Of a stretch of 43,594 nucleotides of DNA, positions 1 to 18,716 are shown piece after piece. The position numbers and the translations under genes are program-made. How positions within the stretch are numbered: the stretch's first letter is position 1; every line of letters begins with the position of its first letter. The notes under the pieces were generated by a model. That model saw only the letters and a program-made list of their open reading frames with translations. It was not told where the DNA came from and searched no databases. Source of the DNA: a virus (taxonomy: Duplodnaviria > Heunggongvirae > Uroviricota > Caudoviricetes); IMG/VR virus record IMGVR_UViG_2526164599_000004, one strand, 5' to 3'.

Positions 1-1284
1 TTACTTCTTCGCCTCTGCAACCACTTTACTACCCACGCCGCGGTTATTGTATTCCCACATGCGGTTGTAGTTAGTGTCATTCAGATTGCGCTGTATTTCG
101 TCGTTATCATCTACGCTGCCGGTATTACCCGCAAACGGACGATTAGAGATCACCGCATCGGCCCACGGTTTAGCCGTGTTAAAACCTTCGTTGATGGCGC
201 TATCACGGATCACCACCTGACCGTTGGTATTGGCATCAACATCCAGCGAGCGGCCCAGTTGCGCCACACCATCACCGAAAGCATTGAAACGGCTGTTTAC
301 GGCGAGGAAACCGTAGTAAATGTTGGACAGCGTAGCCGGTGCAAACACATACGCTTCTTGCTGAGTACGTGAGTTCACCACGCGGAATTCGGTGTTATCG
401 AACACCACTGCGCCGCGACCAGAAACGATATCCACATCCCCTTCAATGTAGCTGTTGGTCACCAGCGTACGCGGCTGACGGTTGGTTTCCAGACGGTTCT
501 GCACACCGCTGTTGGTGACAAAGAAGGTGTTCTGACGACCGAGAATGTTAACGTTGTTAATCTGCACCAGGTCACCATCAGTACGCAGTGCCACCGCCGG
601 ATGGTTACCTGCATCTACGCTATCGCCCAGCGTGTTTTCGATGGTCAGATTTTGCAGTTGCAGGCCATTGTTTTGTGACCAGAAGACCGCAGAGCAGAGA
701 ACACCGATACTGTCGCTGCGTTTGCTCTGGCAGCTATCGTACATATACCACGCTGGTTTACCTGGCATATATTTGCCGCGCGGGTTGACGTCGTGACGCC
801 AGTCGGCAGGGCTCATGCCACCATCAAGGGAAAGCCCAATCTTCACATCAATCGGTTTTTCACCTGTACCGTACAGAGTAATTCCACCCGGAGCGGCAGG
901 GACATATACCGTTCCCTGATACTCACCAGGCATCACGGCAATATACTGGCGCTTGTTGGTACGCTTGATAATTGCCGCATCTACCGCCGCCTGAATCGTG
1001 GTATGCGTTACACCTTGAGTGCCCGCCGGGCCGACAACAAAGTCAGGTTGCGCAGGCAGGGTAATCGGGGAAGGATTCCACGCTGCAGCACCTGGTGTCA
1101 GGGATGCAAAATAGTGTTGAGCATCGAAATTCTGCGCTTCTTTTGCCGACAGAATCGGGCGAGAAGAGGTACCAGGCGCGGTTTGATCAGAAGGACGTTG
1201 ATCGGGCGGGGTTGAGCTACAGGCGGTCAGCGTCACGCCAAAAGCCAATGCCAGCGCCAGACGGGAAACTGAAAATGTGTTCAC
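1..1284 (-). CDS. ybhC: Host outer-membrane lipoprotein YbhC (pectinesterase-family)
   Basis: 427-aa ORF with lipoprotein signal (LTAC); recognised as E. coli YbhC, the gene flanking attB-lambda on the gal side. Identity from memory, not search. Confidence 0.8.
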   Translation of the reverse strand: MNTFSVSRLALALAFGVTLTACSSTPPDQRPSDQTAPGTSSRPILSAKEAQNFDAQHYFASLTPGAAAWNPSPITLPAQPDFVVGPAGTQGVTHTTIQAAVDAAIIKRTNKRQYIAVMPGEYQGTVYVPAAPGGITLYGTGEKPIDVKIGLSLDGGMSPADWRHDVNPRGKYMPGKPAWYMYDSCQSKRSDSIGVLCSAVFWSQNNGLQLQNLTIENTLGDSVDAGNHPAVALRTDGDLVQINNVNILGRQNTFFVTNSGVQNRLETNRQPRTLVTNSYIEGDVDIVSGRGAVVFDNTEFRVVNSRTQQEAYVFAPATLSNIYYGFLAVNSRFNAFGDGVAQLGRSLDVDANTNGQVVIRDSAINEGFNTAKPWADAVISNRPFAGNTGSVDDNDEIQRNLNDTNYNRMWEYNNRGVGSKVVAEAKK

Positions 1285-1330
1285 AGGTTGCTCCGGGCTA
1301 TGAAATAGAAAAATGAATCCGTTGAAGCCT

Positions 1331-1345
1331 GCTTTTTTATACTAA
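1331..1345. other. attL: attL core (lambda att common core) with P' arm extending to ~1420
   Basis: Exact 15-bp lambda core GCTTTTTTATACTAA at 1331-1345, followed by P'-arm-like sequence (CAGTCAAAAT repeats) and the int 3' end. Confidence 0.85.
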
Positions 1346-1418
1346 GTTGGCATTATAAAAAAGCATTGCTTATCAATTTGTTGCAACGAACAGGTCACTA
1401 TCAGTCAAAATAAAATCA

Positions 1419-2489
1419 TTATTTGATTTCAATTTTGTCCCACTCCCTGCCTCTGTCATCACGATACTGTGATGCCATGGTGTCCGACTTATGCCCGAGA
1501 AGATGTTGAGCAAATTTATCGCTTATCTGCTTCTCATAGAGTCTTGCAGACAAACTGCGCAACTCGTGAAAGGTTGGCGGATCCCCTTCGAAGGAGAGAC
1601 CTGATGCTTTTCGTGCGCGCATAAAATACCTTGATACTGTGCCGGATGAAAGCGGTTCACGACGAGTAGATGCAATTATGGTTTCTCCGCCAAGAATCTT
1701 TTTGCATTTATCAAGTGTTTCCTTCATTGATATCCCGAGAGCATCAACATGCAATGTTGTTGGGATGGCAATTTTTACGCCTGTTTTGCTTTGCTCGACA
1801 TAAAGATATCCATCTACGATATCAGACCACTTCATTTCGCATAAATCACCAACTCGCTGCCCGGTAACAACAGCCAGTTCCATTGCAAGTCTAAGCCAAC
1901 ATGGTGATGATTCTGCTGCTTGATAAATTTTCAGGTATTCGTCAGCCGTAAGTCTTGATCTCCTTACCTCTGATTTTGCAGCGCGAGTGGCTGCGACCGG
2001 GTTTGTTGTTATATGGCCTTCAGCCATAGCCTCTCGGAATGCATCGCTCAGTGTTGATCTGATTAACTTGGCTGATGCCGCCTTTCCCTCGTCTATGTAT
2101 CCATTGAGCATTGCCGCAATTTCTTTTGTGGTGATGTCTTCAAGTGGAGCATCAGGCAGACCCCTCCTTATTGCTTTAATTTTGCTCATGTAATTTATGA
2201 GTGTCTTCTGCTTGATTCCTCTGCTGGCCAGGATTTTTTCGTAGCGATCAAGCCATGAATGTAACGTAACGGAATTATCACTGTTGATTCTCGCTGTCAG
2301 AGGCTTGTGTTTGTGTCCTGAAAATAACTCAATGTTGGCCTGTATAGCTTCAGTGATTGCGATTCGCCTGTCTCGGCCTAATCCAAACTCTTTACCCGTC
2401 CTTGGGTCCCTGTAGCAGTAATATCCATTGTTTCTTATATAAAGGTTAGGGGGTAAATCCCGGCGCTCATGACTTCGCCTTCTTCCCAT
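1419..2489 (-). CDS. int: Lambda integrase (tyrosine recombinase)
   Basis: 356-aa ORF matching lambda Int as recalled; position next to att core. Confidence 0.95.
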   Translation of the reverse strand: MGRRRSHERRDLPPNLYIRNNGYYCYRDPRTGKEFGLGRDRRIAITEAIQANIELFSGHKHKPLTARINSDNSVTLHSWLDRYEKILASRGIKQKTLINYMSKIKAIRRGLPDAPLEDITTKEIAAMLNGYIDEGKAASAKLIRSTLSDAFREAMAEGHITTNPVAATRAAKSEVRRSRLTADEYLKIYQAAESSPCWLRLAMELAVVTGQRVGDLCEMKWSDIVDGYLYVEQSKTGVKIAIPTTLHVDALGISMKETLDKCKKILGGETIIASTRREPLSSGTVSRYFMRARKASGLSFEGDPPTFHELRSLSARLYEKQISDKFAQHLLGHKSDTMASQYRDDRGREWDKIEIK

Positions 2490-3430: not shown

Positions 3431-3769
3431 TTTATATCATTAATTTTGTTTCGTGCCAGCCTTTGGTCACCCAGCATTGTGAGTCACCATTACACGGGCA
3501 TGAATTAACAGGAACTCTCTCGCCGCACTTACCGCAACGTTTTCTGCTGATCGATTTTATACGCCAGCGCACACGTGCATCATCCTGGCGGCTCAGTAAC
3601 GCGATGTACTCACCAAACTCGTAAGGCGCATGCCTGAAGCGGCGCGTGGCTCAGTTACGATCCAGCATTTCAATTTCCTGAGCATCAAGTACAAGCTCCA
3701 GCTTACGCATACCGGATGATGCTTGCTTGGCTCTCTGATCGACTTTGCGCTCTGCTGATGATTTAGCCA
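3431..3769 (-). pseudogene. Small ORF (39 codons) followed in-frame, after one TGA, by 73 more codons with a Cys-rich zinc-finger-like tail
   Basis: Hand translation: MAKSSAERKVDQRAKQASSGMRKLELVLDAQEIEMLDRN, TGA at 3650-3652, then in frame ...RKRCGKCGERVPVNSCPCNGDSQCW... to TAA at 3431-3433; the downstream part has no start codon of its own. Confidence 0.3.
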
Positions 3770-3782
3770 TTCTGCTTTTCCT

Positions 3783-3836
3783 GCATTAGGAGAAAGACAA
3801 TCATGGCGGCGCGGATACTTCCGGTATCTTTTTACT
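3783..3836 (-). repeat. Remnant of a NinX-like gene 3' end (about 50 bp homologous to 19631-19688)
   Basis: Reverse complement reads ...ATCCGCGCCGCCATGATTGTCTTTCTCCTAATGCAGGA..., nearly identical to the 3' end of the gene at 19348-19695; only about 22 codons of frame remain. Confidence 0.6.
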
Positions 3837-3964
3837 CGATATTACCCTTCAATGGCACATACAAGAAGAGAGCCATCAACAGGAGTGAGTGAGGAATCGA
3901 CAACCAGCAACGCTTAATTATCTATAGTGTCGTATTTGCTTCATAAAATATGGCGAATAACACA

Positions 3965-3998
3965 AAGCCCGCAGCAGCTCATTGTGCGGGCTTTTCTT
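3965..3998. terminator. Bidirectional intrinsic terminator hairpin
   Basis: AAGCCCGCA...TGCGGGCTT stem followed by TTTTCTT on plus and TTTGTGTT on minus; sits about 70 bp downstream of the 204-aa minus-strand gene. Confidence 0.5.
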
Positions 3999-4063
3999 AT
4001 ACATACTTCCTAGAGATAATTCTATGGAGGCATTAAATTAATACTGTCATTGGTAATATCATA

Positions 4064-4678
4064 TTATCTAAAAGTCTTTCCACTTTTAACGTCTAGGTAT
4101 ATTCTGTTCGACAACGTCATTCCTCCGCAATATGTGAAATAGATGTTTTTCCCCTTATTGCTTGATGCCATCCACCCTCCGATTTCCTTAAAGTCGCTTT
4201 CCGTGCAGACCCCTTCGTTTATTAACTTCCTAGCTGCCGAAGAAAACTCTTTTTTGTATATACGGTAGTCATCAGATCCTTTGATTAAAGTATCATCTCC
4301 GCTCGCATTTTCAGCAGGATCTGATGGCCTTTCACTGCTAAGATCACTAAGTTTAACCCATTCTGAAAACTTGCCATTGACGATTCCGTTTTTTCTTGTG
4401 CAGGATTTATTACCTTCTTTAATATATTCGCTTTCCCCTCCCACACATGAGGCTGAATATGGCTCAGTTATACGAACCCATTCACCTTTTTTTTCTAGAA
4501 AATCTACGCCTTCCCTGAAAAATAGTTTCCCAGCCACTCCGCATTTACTTGAAGGGCAGGTATGTCTTTCCGTTCGATCAACAACAACCCAAAGTCTTGA
4601 TTCATTTTTTGCCATTGCCGATGGTATTTGAGATGAGACAATTAACGTAAGCCCTAAAATTAGTATTGATTTTTTCAT
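4064..4678 (-). CDS. Secreted cysteine-rich protein of unknown function (204 aa)
   Basis: N-terminal signal peptide (MKKSILILGLTLIVSSQIPSAMA|K), several Cys, AT-rich flanks with own terminator; not a lambda gene I recognise. Confidence 0.6.
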   Translation of the reverse strand: MKKSILILGLTLIVSSQIPSAMAKNESRLWVVVDRTERHTCPSSKCGVAGKLFFREGVDFLEKKGEWVRITEPYSASCVGGESEYIKEGNKSCTRKNGIVNGKFSEWVKLSDLSSERPSDPAENASGDDTLIKGSDDYRIYKKEFSSAARKLINEGVCTESDFKEIGGWMASSNKGKNIYFTYCGGMTLSNRIYLDVKSGKTFR

Positions 4679-4814
4679 TGTAATTTCCTTTTACTTTTTA
4701 CAAAGCGTTTAATCATGGCTGATTATCTTTAAGCGTAGTAACAGCCTTGTGCGAAACATGTTACCAAATCGCCATTTCAGTGTATCCGCAGTTAGGCTGC
4801 CACTTCAAGGATTC

Positions 4815-5228
4815 CTAATTACATGGTACGTAAGCGTAAAATCCCGTTGGTTGTCGGGTAATAACTCTGATCAAATCTCCCTTGTCTTTTGCTCTTACGT
4901 ATGCAGCTCTTGTGTATTCAACCCAGGCCTCCAGTTCAGCAATACGCTTACTTCCATCCGAGATAACACCTTCTACTCACGCTGCTCGTTGAGTTTTGAT
5001 TTTTGCTGTCTCCAGCTCAACACGCAGTTTCCTCACCGTTAGCGCAATATCCTCGTTCTCCTGGTCGCGGCGTTTGATGTACTGCTGGTTTCTTTCCCGT
5101 TCATCCAGCAGTGTCAGCACAATCGATGGTGTTACCAGCTCATGGAAAAGGTCCGCGTCAAATCCCCAGTTGTCATGCATTGCCTGCTCTGCCGCTTCAC
5201 GCAGTGCCTGAGAGTGAATTACGCTCAC
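4815..5228 (-). pseudogene. ea22: ea22-like gene interrupted by an in-frame TGA (83-aa N-terminal ORF 4977-5228 plus 53 in-frame codons)
   Basis: N-terminus MS.I.SQALREAAEQAMHD.WGFDADLFHELVTPSIVL... matches lambda Ea22 as recalled; TGA at 4977-4979, then in-frame EGVISDGSKRIAELE... continuing to TAG at 4815-4817. Confidence 0.5.
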
Positions 5229-8045: not shown

Positions 8046-10012
<1,967 letters not shown>

Positions 10013-11461: not shown

Positions 11462-12043
11462 ATGAACAACTCATGGTGGCAGGAACTAATGCATTTTTTC
11501 CTGCAAGGAATGACACTTAAACAGTTGATTCATATGCTAATCATCCTGATCATATTGATTATTGTTATGCCGGTAAGCGTAAAAGAATGGATAAACCTGC
11601 ATAATCCAGAAATCCTTCCTTATTATTGGATGTATTACATCCTGTTGTTCTGCGTTAGCTATGTGCTTAACGGTGTTGTTAATTCCGCTTATCACGCTGT
11701 GACTGAAAGAATTGAGGTATCCGCTGCTCAGAAGCGCAAATCTAAAGAAGAAAAATATGTGCAAGATTTGTTTGATTCGTTAACTCTTGGAGAAAGAGCG
11801 TATTTGGCATTCGCTGTAGCCGCGAATAACCAGCTAAAGACAGAAAAGGGAAGCCCTGAAGCAATCTCATTGCTCGAAAAAGGGCTTCTTATTCGGATAC
11901 CTTCTGCTACTGGATATCCTGAAATCGACCGTTTTGTTATCCCGGAACGCTATAGAAATGAGTGCTACATTCGGTTTGCCGGGAAGGCAGACAGCCTTAT
12001 GGATGAACTTATCGCTCAGGATAAGCATGGCAAAAACAAGTAA
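11462..12043 (+). CDS. sieB: Superinfection exclusion protein B
   Basis: 193 aa with hydrophobic N-terminal region; matches lambda SieB as recalled; plus strand between ral and N as in lambda. Confidence 0.85.
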   Translation: MNNSWWQELMHFFLQGMTLKQLIHMLIILIILIIVMPVSVKEWINLHNPEILPYYWMYYILLFCVSYVLNGVVNSAYHAVTERIEVSAAQKRKSKEEKYVQDLFDSLTLGERAYLAFAVAANNQLKTEKGSPEAISLLEKGLLIRIPSATGYPEIDRFVIPERYRNECYIRFAGKADSLMDELIAQDKHGKNK

Positions 12044-12499: not shown

Positions 12500-12720
12500 C
12501 CAGCGTCCTGCTGACGGTTAAATAGTACGATATGTACTTTACAAGATCAATACAATTTGTTGTAAGTTGGCGTGGTTTTTTATAACGCTTTGTATTTAAT
12601 AGTGTTGTTTTTTAGCGTGGATGTATTGCCTCGGCGATGTAAGGAGAGATCAGAATTGCGTGGTTTAGTGGGTTGCATCTATTTATTTTTCAATAAATAC
12701 AATTGGTTATGTGTTTTTAG
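12500..12720. promoter_or_regulatory. OL/pL region (operator block about 12521-12552)
   Basis: AT-rich region upstream of nutL; contains a block homologous, in inverted orientation, to the OR block at 14836-14863, plus a second shared motif ACGCTTTGTA. Confidence 0.45.
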
Positions 12721-12740
12721 GTGGGGCGATCGTGAGGCAA

Positions 12741-12769
12741 AGAAAACCCGGCGCTGAGGCCGGGTTTTT
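12741..12769 (-). terminator. Intrinsic terminator ending the cI operon (bidirectional hairpin)
   Basis: CCCGGC-GCTGAG-GCCGGG stem-loop flanked by A-run and T-run, directly after the stop of the 258-aa gene. Confidence 0.65.
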
Positions 12770-13546
12770 CTAGGCTACCAGAGACTCAATCCAAGAGTCT
12801 CTGGTATGGAATGGCAACACTCGTGCGGTATCATTAAATAGTAGTGATAGTTGCTGTAGCTCAGGTGTTAACCCATCGCTGTCAACTATTACAAATCTAT
12901 TGTTTATGTCAGGAACGACCTGACTTAAGTCAACAATCTTCCCAACTGTTGAGTGGGCAGTATTCCATCCCTTACTGCTGGCAAGGCTTACCGTAAACCC
13001 GCGTTTTGGTGGTATTAGTCGAGACTCATTCCTTAGCGTTAACGGAACAGTAATGTTATGCCCACTAATACCTTTCACTTTTTCCTTTAAGGCTAGTCGC
13101 TTCCCAAGCCCTGCTGATTTTAAGTAACTGATTACACATTTTTCGAACTTATCGTCTTTGACCTCAGCATACCAATCAGCAGTTTGGGCGGATGCAAGAA
13201 TCCCACCACGAATAACATTTGCAGTTACCTGTCCAACGGACGACTCATCTGCCCACGCAGATATCTCTCCAGAATCATTTAATGAAATTCCTTGCGAAGC
13301 GAGTGATGACCTAATCAGATCAATTTTCTTTTTAGTCAGGTGGATGCCGCGTGATTCAATATTCATCAATGTATCGCAGTAGTCTGTAACCCTATACTGA
13401 CCACTCATCTCTTGAACGAATACACTTATCTGCTCACAATCATCGTAGTATGTGAAGGGACTAATAACGCGCAGCAACGTGTCGCTCATTGGGTGGCATT
13501 CAAACCCGAGCTTAGATATGACTGTTGAACACGTTACATTTCCCAT
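12770..13546 (-). CDS. Unknown protein B (258 aa), rexAB-position cassette
   Basis: Clean ORF co-oriented with cI; its ATG lies 13 nt inside the 3' end of the 180-aa gene; no family recognised; no obvious transmembrane helices. Confidence 0.6.
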   Translation of the reverse strand: MGNVTCSTVISKLGFECHPMSDTLLRVISPFTYYDDCEQISVFVQEMSGQYRVTDYCDTLMNIESRGIHLTKKKIDLIRSSLASQGISLNDSGEISAWADESSVGQVTANVIRGGILASAQTADWYAEVKDDKFEKCVISYLKSAGLGKRLALKEKVKGISGHNITVPLTLRNESRLIPPKRGFTVSLASSKGWNTAHSTVGKIVDLSQVVPDINNRFVIVDSDGLTPELQQLSLLFNDTARVLPFHTRDSWIESLVA

Positions 13547-14076
13547 GATAGCTGACCTGATTTATCTTGATTAGGTAAAGGTGGGCTGCCTTCATATATG
13601 ATATTAAGCGCCTCGCAAAAATAATTCCAGTAGCCAAAAAAATCATCTGGCTTGATGTTCGTTTCAAGCTTAAGTGCAATTTCTTCCCCAGCTGATTCGA
13701 AGTACATGTGATAGTGAGGACCTCGAGCCACCTCAACAAAATCTGGATGGTTCACTATAGATTTATTACGGTGTGGCTTGTTATCCGCAGGGTACGGGTC
13801 AAGCGCGTAAATGCGCCTGTCATGAAGAAACATCACAAATGAAATCTTCACTATATCCACCCCTTCAACGATAGGAGGACGCCAGTGAAGCATAAATCTT
13901 ATGCCTGTGATTGGGTTGCCAATTTCATCAAAAGCTTTGAGATCCAATTTAAACCAGATTGGGGTTCGTCCCTCACTTCCGGTCCATGTAACTCCGCTAA
14001 AAGTTACTTTTTTCAAGCGAGTAATAGCTTGGTCAACCTCTTTCTGGGTAGGCTTAAAGTCGCCTTTTTTAGCCAC
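13534..14076 (-). CDS. Unknown protein A (180 aa), rexAB-position cassette
   Basis: Clean ORF 46 bp downstream of the cI stop, same strand; no family recognised. Confidence 0.6.
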   Translation of the reverse strand: MAKKGDFKPTQKEVDQAITRLKKVTFSGVTWTGSEGRTPIWFKLDLKAFDEIGNPITGIRFMLHWRPPIVEGVDIVKISFVMFLHDRRIYALDPYPADNKPHRNKSIVNHPDFVEVARGPHYHMYFESAGEEIALKLETNIKPDDFFGYWNYFCEALNIIYEGSPPLPNQDKSGQLSWEM

Positions 14077-14122
14077 TGATTCGTATCACCATGAAAGTTA
14101 TTGTTAATACCTGTGCTTCTTG

Positions 14123-14782
14123 TCACCCAAACGTCTCTTCAGGCCACTGACTAGCGATAACTTTCCCCACAACGGAACAACTCTCATTGCATGGGATCAT
14201 TGGGTATTGTGGGTTTAGTGGCTGTAGAAACACCTGACCGCTATCCCTGATCAGTTTCTTGAAGGTAAACTCATCACCACCAAGTCTGGCTATACAGAAA
14301 TCGCCTGGCTCAACAGCCTGCTCAGGGTCAACCAGAATTAACATCCCGTCAGGAAAGCTGGGCTTGGAACCTGTTGGTGCGGTCATTGAGTTACCTTCAA
14401 CCTCAAGCCAGAATGCAGAGTCACTGGCTTTTTTGGTTGTGCTTACCAATCTCTCCGCATCGCCTTTGGTAAAGGTTCTGAGTTCTGGAGAGAACATCCC
14501 AGCCTGAACATGAGAAAAAACAGGGTACTCATATTGTTTTTTAACTGGGGCCGATGAGTATTCGCCAACAGGTGAAAATGTCCCGTCGTGGTTGAATGAT
14601 ATGTTATCAATACCAAGGTATTTAAACACCACACCAATATCACTAAGAGATGGATGACGAGATCCGCGCAACCAGTGTCCAATCCCACCCTGCGTCATAC
14701 CTAGCTCTTCGGCTAACTTCTCTTGAGTTATGCCGAGCTCTTTCATTCTGGATCTAGCCAGTTCATACCATTTCATTTTCAT
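14123..14782 (-). CDS. cI: CI-type repressor, hybrid: novel N-terminal HTH domain plus lambda CI C-terminal domain
   Basis: C-terminal about 135 aa (...[28 protein letters not shown]...[14 protein letters not shown]) matches lambda CI; N-terminal about 85 aa does not; start chosen at MKMKWYEL with AAGGA ribosome-binding site. Confidence 0.85.
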
Positions 14783-14892
14783 GTCCTTATTATTACGCTT
14801 TGTACTGGAACCATCCATGCACAATGTGTATTTTTACTTGTATTCGTAAAGTACATATTGTATTTTTTATTCGTGTTTACTATGGAGGGCAT
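14783..14892. promoter_or_regulatory. OR region with divergent pRM/pR (operator block about 14836-14863)
   Basis: Intergenic between divergent cI and cro; near-palindromic TACA/TGTA elements shared with OL; exact operators and promoter hexamers not resolved. Confidence 0.5.
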
Positions 14893-17825: not shown

Positions 17826-18716
17826 TCAGGCTGCCAGATCATCGTTTCCGATGGAAGCATAATAAGCTTTTTCTGCTTCTGCCGGTGGGATATGGCCCAG
17901 CCTTTCCAGCAATCGTCGATTGTTATACCAGTCCACCCACGTGAGTGTGGCCAGCTCCACTTCTGTCCGGTTTTTCCAGCTCTTACGGTGTATTACCTCC
18001 GCTTTGTAAAGGCCATTGATGCTCTCCGCCATCGCGTTGTCATACGAGTCACCAGTACTTCCTGTTGATGCCAGTAATCCGGCTTCCTTAAGCCGCTGTG
18101 TGTAGGCCAGCGATACATACTGAGAACCTTTATCACTGTGATGGACTGTGCCGGACGGTCGACGGGCCCATAACGCCTGCTCCAGAGCATCCAGCACGAA
18201 TGTCGTTTCCATAGACGATGAGACCCGCCACCCCACGATGTATCCGGCAAACACATCAATGATGAACGCCACATAGACGACCCCCTGCCATGTGCTGACG
18301 TAAGTAAAATCAGCCACCCACAACTGGTCAGGACGTTCTGCCACAAACTGACGGTTTACGCGGTCGCCTGCGGCAACGGCTTTCCGGCTGACGGTAGTGC
18401 GGACCTTTTTACCCCGGAGAACACCGGCAAGTCCCATAACCGCCATGAGGCGCGCCACTGTACATCTGGCTACCCTGATTCCTTCCCGTAACAACTGACG
18501 CCAGACTTTACGCACACCGTATACCTGATGATTCCCATCGTATACGCGCAGTATCTCTTTCTTCAGCCAGTCATCGCGCTGCGCACGGGCACTGCGTTTA
18601 TCAGGATGATGTCGCTGTTGCTGACAGTGGTAATACGTTGACGGGGCAATATGTAGTTCACTGCATACCGGTCCGACCCCGTACAGCTTACGCAGCTTAT
18701 CCAGCAGTGGCATCAC
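17826..18716 (-). CDS. IS629 transposase OrfB
   Basis: 296 aa, integrase catalytic core; recalled as IS629/IS1203 OrfB. Confidence 0.85.

Follow-up and report, generated by a model that had tools for sequence, protein, structure and literature searches.

Two overlapping genes, designated A and B, lie directly downstream of the cI-type repressor gene in a 43,594-nt stretch of DNA from a virus of the class Caudoviricetes (IMG/VR record IMGVR_UViG_2526164599_000004). This whole stretch is referred to as the window. The A-B cassette occupies the position that rexA and rexB hold in phage lambda, and the analysis identifies it as a real, uncharacterised and already catalogued defence candidate. The unit comprises the following features, in the order in which they are read.

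14123–14824, minus strand: cI-type repressor gene heading the unit, with helix-turn-helix (HTH) and S24 peptidase domains; the RefSeq start is the ATG two codons in (14818).
14077–14122, minus strand: 46-nt spacer between cI and A, with a GGTGA Shine-Dalgarno-like motif (read from the sequence) about 9 nt before the GTG of A.
13534–14076, minus strand: gene A, GTG start at 14076, encoding a soluble, mostly β protein of 180 aa that is a distant DUF6978 and PDC-M24A relative.
12770–13546, minus strand: gene B, ATG start at 13546, encoding a soluble protein of 258 aa with a DUF1828 domain and a DUF1829-type PD-(D/E)xK-like domain.
12739–12771, minus strand: intrinsic terminator closing the unit, a hairpin (12771–12741) plus T-run whose stem begins within the B stop codon.

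A preliminary description of the locus had given the coordinates and sizes of the two open reading frames (ORFs) and the 13-nt overlap between the 3′ end of A and the start of B, and all are correct. It also treated the pair as part of one unit with the repressor, closed by the terminator, which agrees with the layout. The repressor matches Pfam Peptidase_S24 (1.3e-28) and HTH_3 (2e-10) and is annotated as a 'LexA family protein' in identical E. coli prophages. The cI-A spacer was scanned and has no terminator and no convincing promoter. An internal promoter akin to the lambda promoter for rexB was sought, and promoter-like sites were no commoner than in shuffled sequence. The terminator has a folding energy of −21.1 kcal/mol (z = −4.29) with 0 of 200 shuffles as good, in keeping with the earlier claim that an intrinsic terminator closes the unit. 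A consensus terminator scanner missed the hairpin because flanking A/U tracts lengthen the stem. Taken by its layout and by analogy with lambda rexAB, the unit is probably transcribed from the cI promoter to the terminator after B in a lysogen. The 3′ neighbours of the cassette in the window are an N-family antiterminator gene and a SieB-like gene. The SieB-like superinfection exclusion gene (11462–12043, plus strand; Pfam SieB 7e-25, phrog_1301) adjoins N as in lambda and is a second exclusion-type gene of the immunity region.

The cassette has a G+C content of 43% compared with 51% for the whole window. The ratio of nonsynonymous to synonymous substitution rates (dN/dS) was calculated against alleles with 77–83% nucleotide identity (81–83% for A and 77–80% for B). 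Synonymous sites were saturated, and the ratio was approximately 0.05 in A and 0.02 in B. These values indicate strong purifying selection on both genes. An explanation of the ORFs as pseudogenes or chance reading frames was considered and is ruled out by dN/dS. The MAKK... N-terminus of A is kept among homologues. Both proteins are mildly acidic, and their predicted models are soluble globular proteins. Maximum Kyte-Doolittle hydropathy over a 19-residue window is 1.22 for A and 0.79 for B; neither has a hydrophobic segment of transmembrane strength by this measure, as the preliminary description had stated.

Comparison with lambda locates the cassette precisely. The cI C-terminal domain (window 14123–14533) is 94.9% identical to lambda, the terminator region (12644–12771) is 90.6% identical to the lambda sequence directly 3′ of rexB, and neither the cassette nor N matches lambda. 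Lambda homology flanks the cassette on both sides and is absent within it, so that A-B stands in place of rexA-rexB, bounded by the same two joints. The mosaic flanks and the rexA-rexB position described earlier are thus both borne out, the latter as the exact slot between lambda-conserved flanks. The same flanks also carry another A-B allele. Phages ev207 and PhiR63_2 share the window's cI, cro, cII, N and sieB, being ~97% identical to it on either side of the cassette interior (up to position 12802 and again from 14033). Inside, their A and B have 41% and 51% amino-acid identity to the window proteins, and the breakpoints of this diverged allele lie in the 5′-terminal 44 nt of A and the 3′-terminal 33 nt of B. 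In an O104:H4 prophage, the window allele (98%) instead accompanies another immunity region, with a repressor N-terminus, cro and replication module unlike those of the window.

The slot between cI and the terminator also carries other genes, and a survey of it in related prophages, as the preliminary description had suggested, returned RexAB, a PD-Lambda-2-like system and further unrecognised cargo. Lambda holds RexA-RexB. The BP-4795 slot (locus 3575–4916) holds ORF22-21-20, which encode a HigB-like toxin, an HTH protein and a PD-T4-9_C-like third protein; the PADLOC matches are PD-Lambda-2_A (2.5e-42), PD-Lambda-2_B (3.8e-50, N-terminal part only) and PD-T4-9_C (3e-11). The BP-4795 genes are a hybrid of two validated systems. 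The slots of 2G7b and PhiR11_1 (locus 3566–4946) hold an unrecognised pair of 283 and 163 aa, and that of mEp332 (locus 3588–4625) holds an unrecognised 345-aa protein. None of these proteins has a Pfam or PADLOC match, and their genes are candidates for further cargo of the slot. Five cargo types are present when both A-B alleles are counted as one, and two of the five are established defence systems or homologous to them. These comparisons identify the slot as a variable-cargo hotspot bounded by conserved recombination joints, and the presence there of RexAB and a PD-Lambda-2-like system sustains the earlier view that A-B is a good defence candidate.

A and B are tightly linked. Homologues of B were collected from IMG/VR, one genome per GTDB species, and phage and E. 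coli records, giving 102 loci. A homologue of A is directly upstream of B on the same strand in 101 of them, and the two genes overlap by 4 nt (51 loci) or 13 nt (46 loci). Identity between copies of A rises and falls with that between copies of B (Spearman 0.90) without a discordant pair, and therefore A and B travel and evolve as one unit. These data indicate that the pair is obligate and ancient. In 95 of 100 loci the gene upstream of A shares its strand, and the four largest clusters of upstream genes, which account for 81 loci, have representatives that resemble HTH repressors. S24 and HTH domains were found in 11 of the 18 distinct upstream protein types scanned. From Enterobacterales to Pseudomonas, the upstream gene usually encodes a cI-type repressor, and these repressors belong to many unrelated kinds. 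Across 95 related loci the median distance from repressor gene to A is 95 nt, and a hairpin plus T-run follows the B stop codon within 150 nt in 98 of 100 loci. The variety of upstream repressors, the short gap and the terminator together define the conserved unit as [repressor]-A-B-terminator.

The pair is found in prophages of Escherichia, Klebsiella, Salmonella, Yersinia, Providencia, Xenorhabdus, Pantoea, Pseudomonas, Azotobacter and Burkholderia. At ≥99% identity, the cassette is in 61 of 5426 complete E. coli genomes (~1%), including O104:H4 outbreak strains. E. coli annotation lists A as a 'hypothetical protein' (WP_001074607.1) and B as a 'DUF1828 domain-containing protein' (WP_000528776.1). 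Pseudomonas phage VB_PaD_phPA-G has an A homologue (3420/3483–4004) that is unannotated in its GenBank record and overlaps the start of the B homologue by 4 nt. An enterobacterial-type A/B junction with 57% identity to B is also present on a 518-nt contig labelled Actinomadura rugatobispora, which most likely reflects contamination of the assembly and not a homologue in an actinobacterium.

B is a two-domain protein with an N-terminal DUF1828 domain (approximately aa 1–125) of type III secretion chaperone-like fold and a C-terminal DUF1829-type domain (approximately aa 130–258). The preliminary description recognised no family for either protein, which does not hold. B matches Pfam DUF1828 over aa 30–112 at 40.9 bits, above the threshold of 22, and DUF1828 is matched by 68 of 80 diverse B relatives. 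A 250-aa homologue of B from the ECOR collection, WP_000968518.1, matches DUF1828 (aa 25–114, probability 99.5) and DUF1829, which belongs to the Pfam clan PDDEXK (aa 155–241, probability 98.8), by HHpred (DeWeirdt, Mahoney & Laub, Science 2026, PMC13092281). Two fold classes relate to B. One consists of small type III secretion chaperone-fold proteins (SpcU, SicP, ShcA, DUF2170 and XisI), and the other of the PD-(D/E)xK proteins Can2, VC1899, NgoMIV, PspGI, Cfr10I, NucC and NucS. A Foldseek search of model B against the PDB, proposed in the preliminary description, returned nothing at E ≤ 1e-3; the highest probabilities were for Card1 and SpcU. A profile search of 1.84 billion representative proteins yielded 213 B-family clusters in which full-length members are standalone proteins of ~250 aa. 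The small number of clusters and the standalone members mean that the B family is small and its architecture fixed.

Residue conservation was assessed across the 80 diverse B-family members. The N-terminal domain conserves D36, D55 (80/80), G67 and G93-E94, and the C-terminal domain conserves G159-x-S161-G162-H163, W194, G202-K203, D206, R217 and E/D222. The position of the canonical catalytic Asp, before β2, is occupied by H163 in B, and by His in 55 and Lys or Arg in 14 of the 80 sequences. No conserved (D/E)xK motif is present on β3 (aa 181–186) in these members, and the conserved acids D206 and E/D222 lie elsewhere. Judged by sequence and predicted secondary structure, the C-terminal domain of B has a probable nuclease-like fold that lacks the canonical active site.

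A is the less familiar protein. Its C-terminal part matches Pfam DUF6978 at 23.6 bits, below the gathering threshold of 29.6, and 14 of 61 A relatives match DUF6978 at E ≤ 0.01. On these scores A is at best a distant DUF6978 relative. The invariant residues of A are R88, D/E93, H102, H121, H123 and N158, and this Arg/acid/His3/Asn cluster is of a kind typical of a catalytic or metal centre. The A model has no significant structural neighbour in the PDB. The A and B sequences and family profiles returned nothing meaningful when searched against all PDB chains, and neither protein has a match in NCBIfam.

PDC-M24 is the only PADLOC family matched by A or B. A PADLOC search had been suggested for the pair, and both proteins do match this one family, but the matches of the window proteins themselves are weak. 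A matches PDC-M24A over aa 98–160 only (E = 3.8e-4, 18.8 bits) and B matches PDC-M24B over positions 4–167 of 256 (E = 5.4e-7, 27.5 bits). Their relatives match more widely. Three PDC-M24A profiles are matched by 12, 7 and 4 of the 61 A relatives, counts that may overlap, and A relatives match nothing else in PADLOC; PDC-M24B is matched by 63 of the 80 diverse B relatives, with a best E-value of 8.8e-55. PDC-M24 also resembles A-B in having two adjacent co-oriented genes, a small A (profiles of 146–148 positions) and a B of ~255 aa. The window pair differs in being divergent, and a threshold-based run would probably miss it. These matches place the cassette as a divergent enterobacterial branch of the PADLOC-DB 2.0 candidate PDC-M24.

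The second prior prediction comes from DefensePredictor, which lists the ECOR proteins WP_000968518.1 (250 aa) and WP_001062368.1 (185 aa) (DeWeirdt, Mahoney & Laub, PMC13092281). Each is entered as 'Predicted novel defense gene', with log-odds of 5.6 and 4.9–5.4 (PMC13092281). The ECOR pair has the lengths of the ev207 copies (A 185 aa, B 250 aa) and is a diverged version of the cassette. The cluster representative for the small protein is WP_001074607.1, the RefSeq accession of A at 99.2–99.9% identical copies of the cassette. The term 'undescribed' in the preliminary description was accordingly too strong: the pair is a divergent PDC-M24 member, and its diverged ECOR counterpart stands in the DefensePredictor supplementary tables. 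The A-B pair is absent from the 94 DefensePredictor units that were tested experimentally (PMC13092281). In the first two of the three parts of Table S6, 12 of 27 tested units with log-odds of 4–8 (44%) were validated against a 24-phage panel (PMC13092281). Among the validated units, DS-34 consists of cI plus one hypothetical gene, and DS-6/HipAD pairs a DUF3037 + DUF1829 protein, proposed to be a non-toxic, DNA-binding partner, with a HipA-like kinase (PMC13092281). The searchable literature on DUF1828, DUF6978, PDC-M24, the RefSeq accessions, the PHROG identifiers and HipAD held nothing relevant except the DefensePredictor supplement.

DS-6/HipAD, validated as a defence system of E. coli, also has two genes, and its second protein combines an N-terminal DUF3037 with a C-terminal DUF1829 domain, comparable to the DUF1828 and DUF1829-type domains of B. 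The N-terminal domains differ, and the partner in HipAD is a HipA-like kinase whereas A is an unrelated small protein; the DUF1829 assignment of DS-6B is also the weaker one (HHpred probability 0.78). A Pfam scan found no kinase domain in A or B, and the neighbours of the pair are cI and N. The likeness to RexA-RexB is one of position: two genes on the same strand in the same slot between the cI C-terminal domain and the post-rexB terminator, a layout that predicts expression with the repressor in the lysogen. The proteins themselves are different. RexB is a polytopic membrane protein, and the A-B pair has no membrane protein, the fold classes of B are different, and A has no significant PDB neighbour. 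The PADLOC RexA and RexB models match the lambda proteins at 9e-110 and 9e-61 and match neither A nor B at E ≤ 1, in agreement with the earlier statement that the pair is unrelated to RexA or RexB. A-B also differs from Can2/Card1 and NucC-type PD-(D/E)xK nucleases in lacking a CARF or cyclic-nucleotide-sensing domain, an associated cyclase and a conserved canonical catalytic motif.

We favour, with fair but not strong confidence, the reading that A-B is an obligate two-protein prophage-cargo module in the repressor operon that most likely protects the lysogen from other phages. A defence function is predicted from the hotspot context together with the two independent predictors, and an effect of the pair on phage infection is somewhat more probable than no effect. 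In the working model, the lysogen would be protected by exclusion or abortive infection. Translational coupling would deliver A and B in a fixed ratio, and the two proteins would act as a complex. B would be the sensor or regulator, its DUF1828 domain holding A or capturing a phage protein; the fold of this domain is shared with type III secretion chaperones, whose clients are extended polypeptides. The C-terminal domain of B would bind rather than cut nucleic acid because the canonical catalytic residues are lacking. A is the candidate effector and would be released or activated on infection. DS-6/HipAD, in which a DUF1829 protein is the proposed non-toxic member beside an effector, is a precedent for this reading. 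The division of roles between B and A is put forward only tentatively. A fuller version of the model, also doubtful, is that A-B is a mechanistically new abortive-infection system in which a B protein made of a chaperone-like sensor and a degenerate nuclease-like domain gates A, a His-rich enzyme with a fold absent from the PDB, and in which the allelic variants exchanged at the rex slot set the phages recognised.

Several points weigh against protection of the lysogen as the function of A-B, or against the details of the model. PDC-M24 is itself a computational candidate, and the searchable literature contains no published validation or mechanism for it and no experiment showing defence, toxicity or expression of A-B. 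More than half of the similarly scored DefensePredictor candidates, in the parts of Table S6 considered here, had no phenotype (PMC13092281). Co-transcription with cI is deduced from the layout of the genes. The effector/sensor split is a guess, and the roles could be reversed, with B as a non-canonical nuclease built on the conserved S161-G-H163, K203, D206, R217 and E/D222 and A as its regulator.

This reversal is developed in an unlikely alternative that is still a defence function, namely that B is the effector, a non-canonical PD-(D/E)xK nuclease switched on by the binding of a phage product to its DUF1828 domain, and A is an antitoxin-like inhibitor or a specificity subunit. The residues at the expected active site speak against it: the canonical Asp before β2 is replaced by His, Lys or Arg, β3 has no (D/E)xK, and the Foldseek matches of B are not significant. 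The invariant His/Arg/acid/Asn cluster of A would be unusual for a mere inhibitor, and the DUF1829 protein of HipAD is the proposed non-toxic partner. A function in prophage maintenance or induction, whether as an addiction module of toxin-antitoxin type or through an effect on the lysis-lysogeny switch, is judged less probable again. RexA reportedly affects the CI/Cro switch, and the tight overlap and obligate pairing of A and B, their constant linkage to a repressor gene across unrelated repressors and the nucleic-acid-binding-type domain of B would all suit such a role. However, the cassette is dispensable, since 2G7b, PhiR11_1 and lambda hold other genes with the same cI and flanks; it also moves between immunity types and is flagged by two independent defence predictors. 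The least probable reading is that A-B is host-fitness cargo, for example stress or virulence related, with no part in phage conflict or prophage control. Prophage cargo does include such functions and the cassette is found in pathogenic lineages such as O104:H4, but neither protein has a signal peptide, a membrane segment or a match to a metabolic or virulence family, and the pair adjoins a repressor gene in prophages of Enterobacterales, Pseudomonas and Burkholderia. Protection of the lysogen from other phages is retained as the preferred function of A-B.

The remainder of the window contains several mobile elements. An IS21-type element (8046–10012, plus strand) encodes an IstA-like transposase of 390 aa and an IstB ATPase of 265 aa, and its insertion into the leftward early operon separates the recombination genes from ea10/ral; because of this insertion, the prophage may be partly defective. 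Two 296-aa IS3-family transposase ORFs (17826–18716 and 23121–24011, minus strand) have identical Pfam profiles. Between them is a 360-aa ORF (21059–22141, minus strand) of the size of the OmpC-family porin annotated at the equivalent place in strain LST200A, and the arrangement may be composite-transposon-like. The left end of the window (1–2489, minus strand) carries a pectinesterase-like (YbhC-like) ORF and a lambda-type integrase gene with an arm-binding domain, which suggests integration at a site like the lambda attachment site.

The cassette has already been flagged as a probable anti-phage defence system by two computational screens, PADLOC and DefensePredictor. No genetic neighbourhood in phage biology is better understood than the lambda immunity region, which is also easy to manipulate. 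If the pair defends, a validated and mechanistically unexplored system would be added to this region, and DUF1828, the DUF1829-type and DUF6978-like domains and a PADLOC candidate would become known biology. The slot between cI and the terminator is a cheap hunting ground, with at least two further unrecognised cargo types in 2G7b/PhiR11_1 and mEp332. Since about 1% of complete E. coli genomes, including pathogens such as O104:H4, carry the cassette, it could influence the phage susceptibility of clinical strains.

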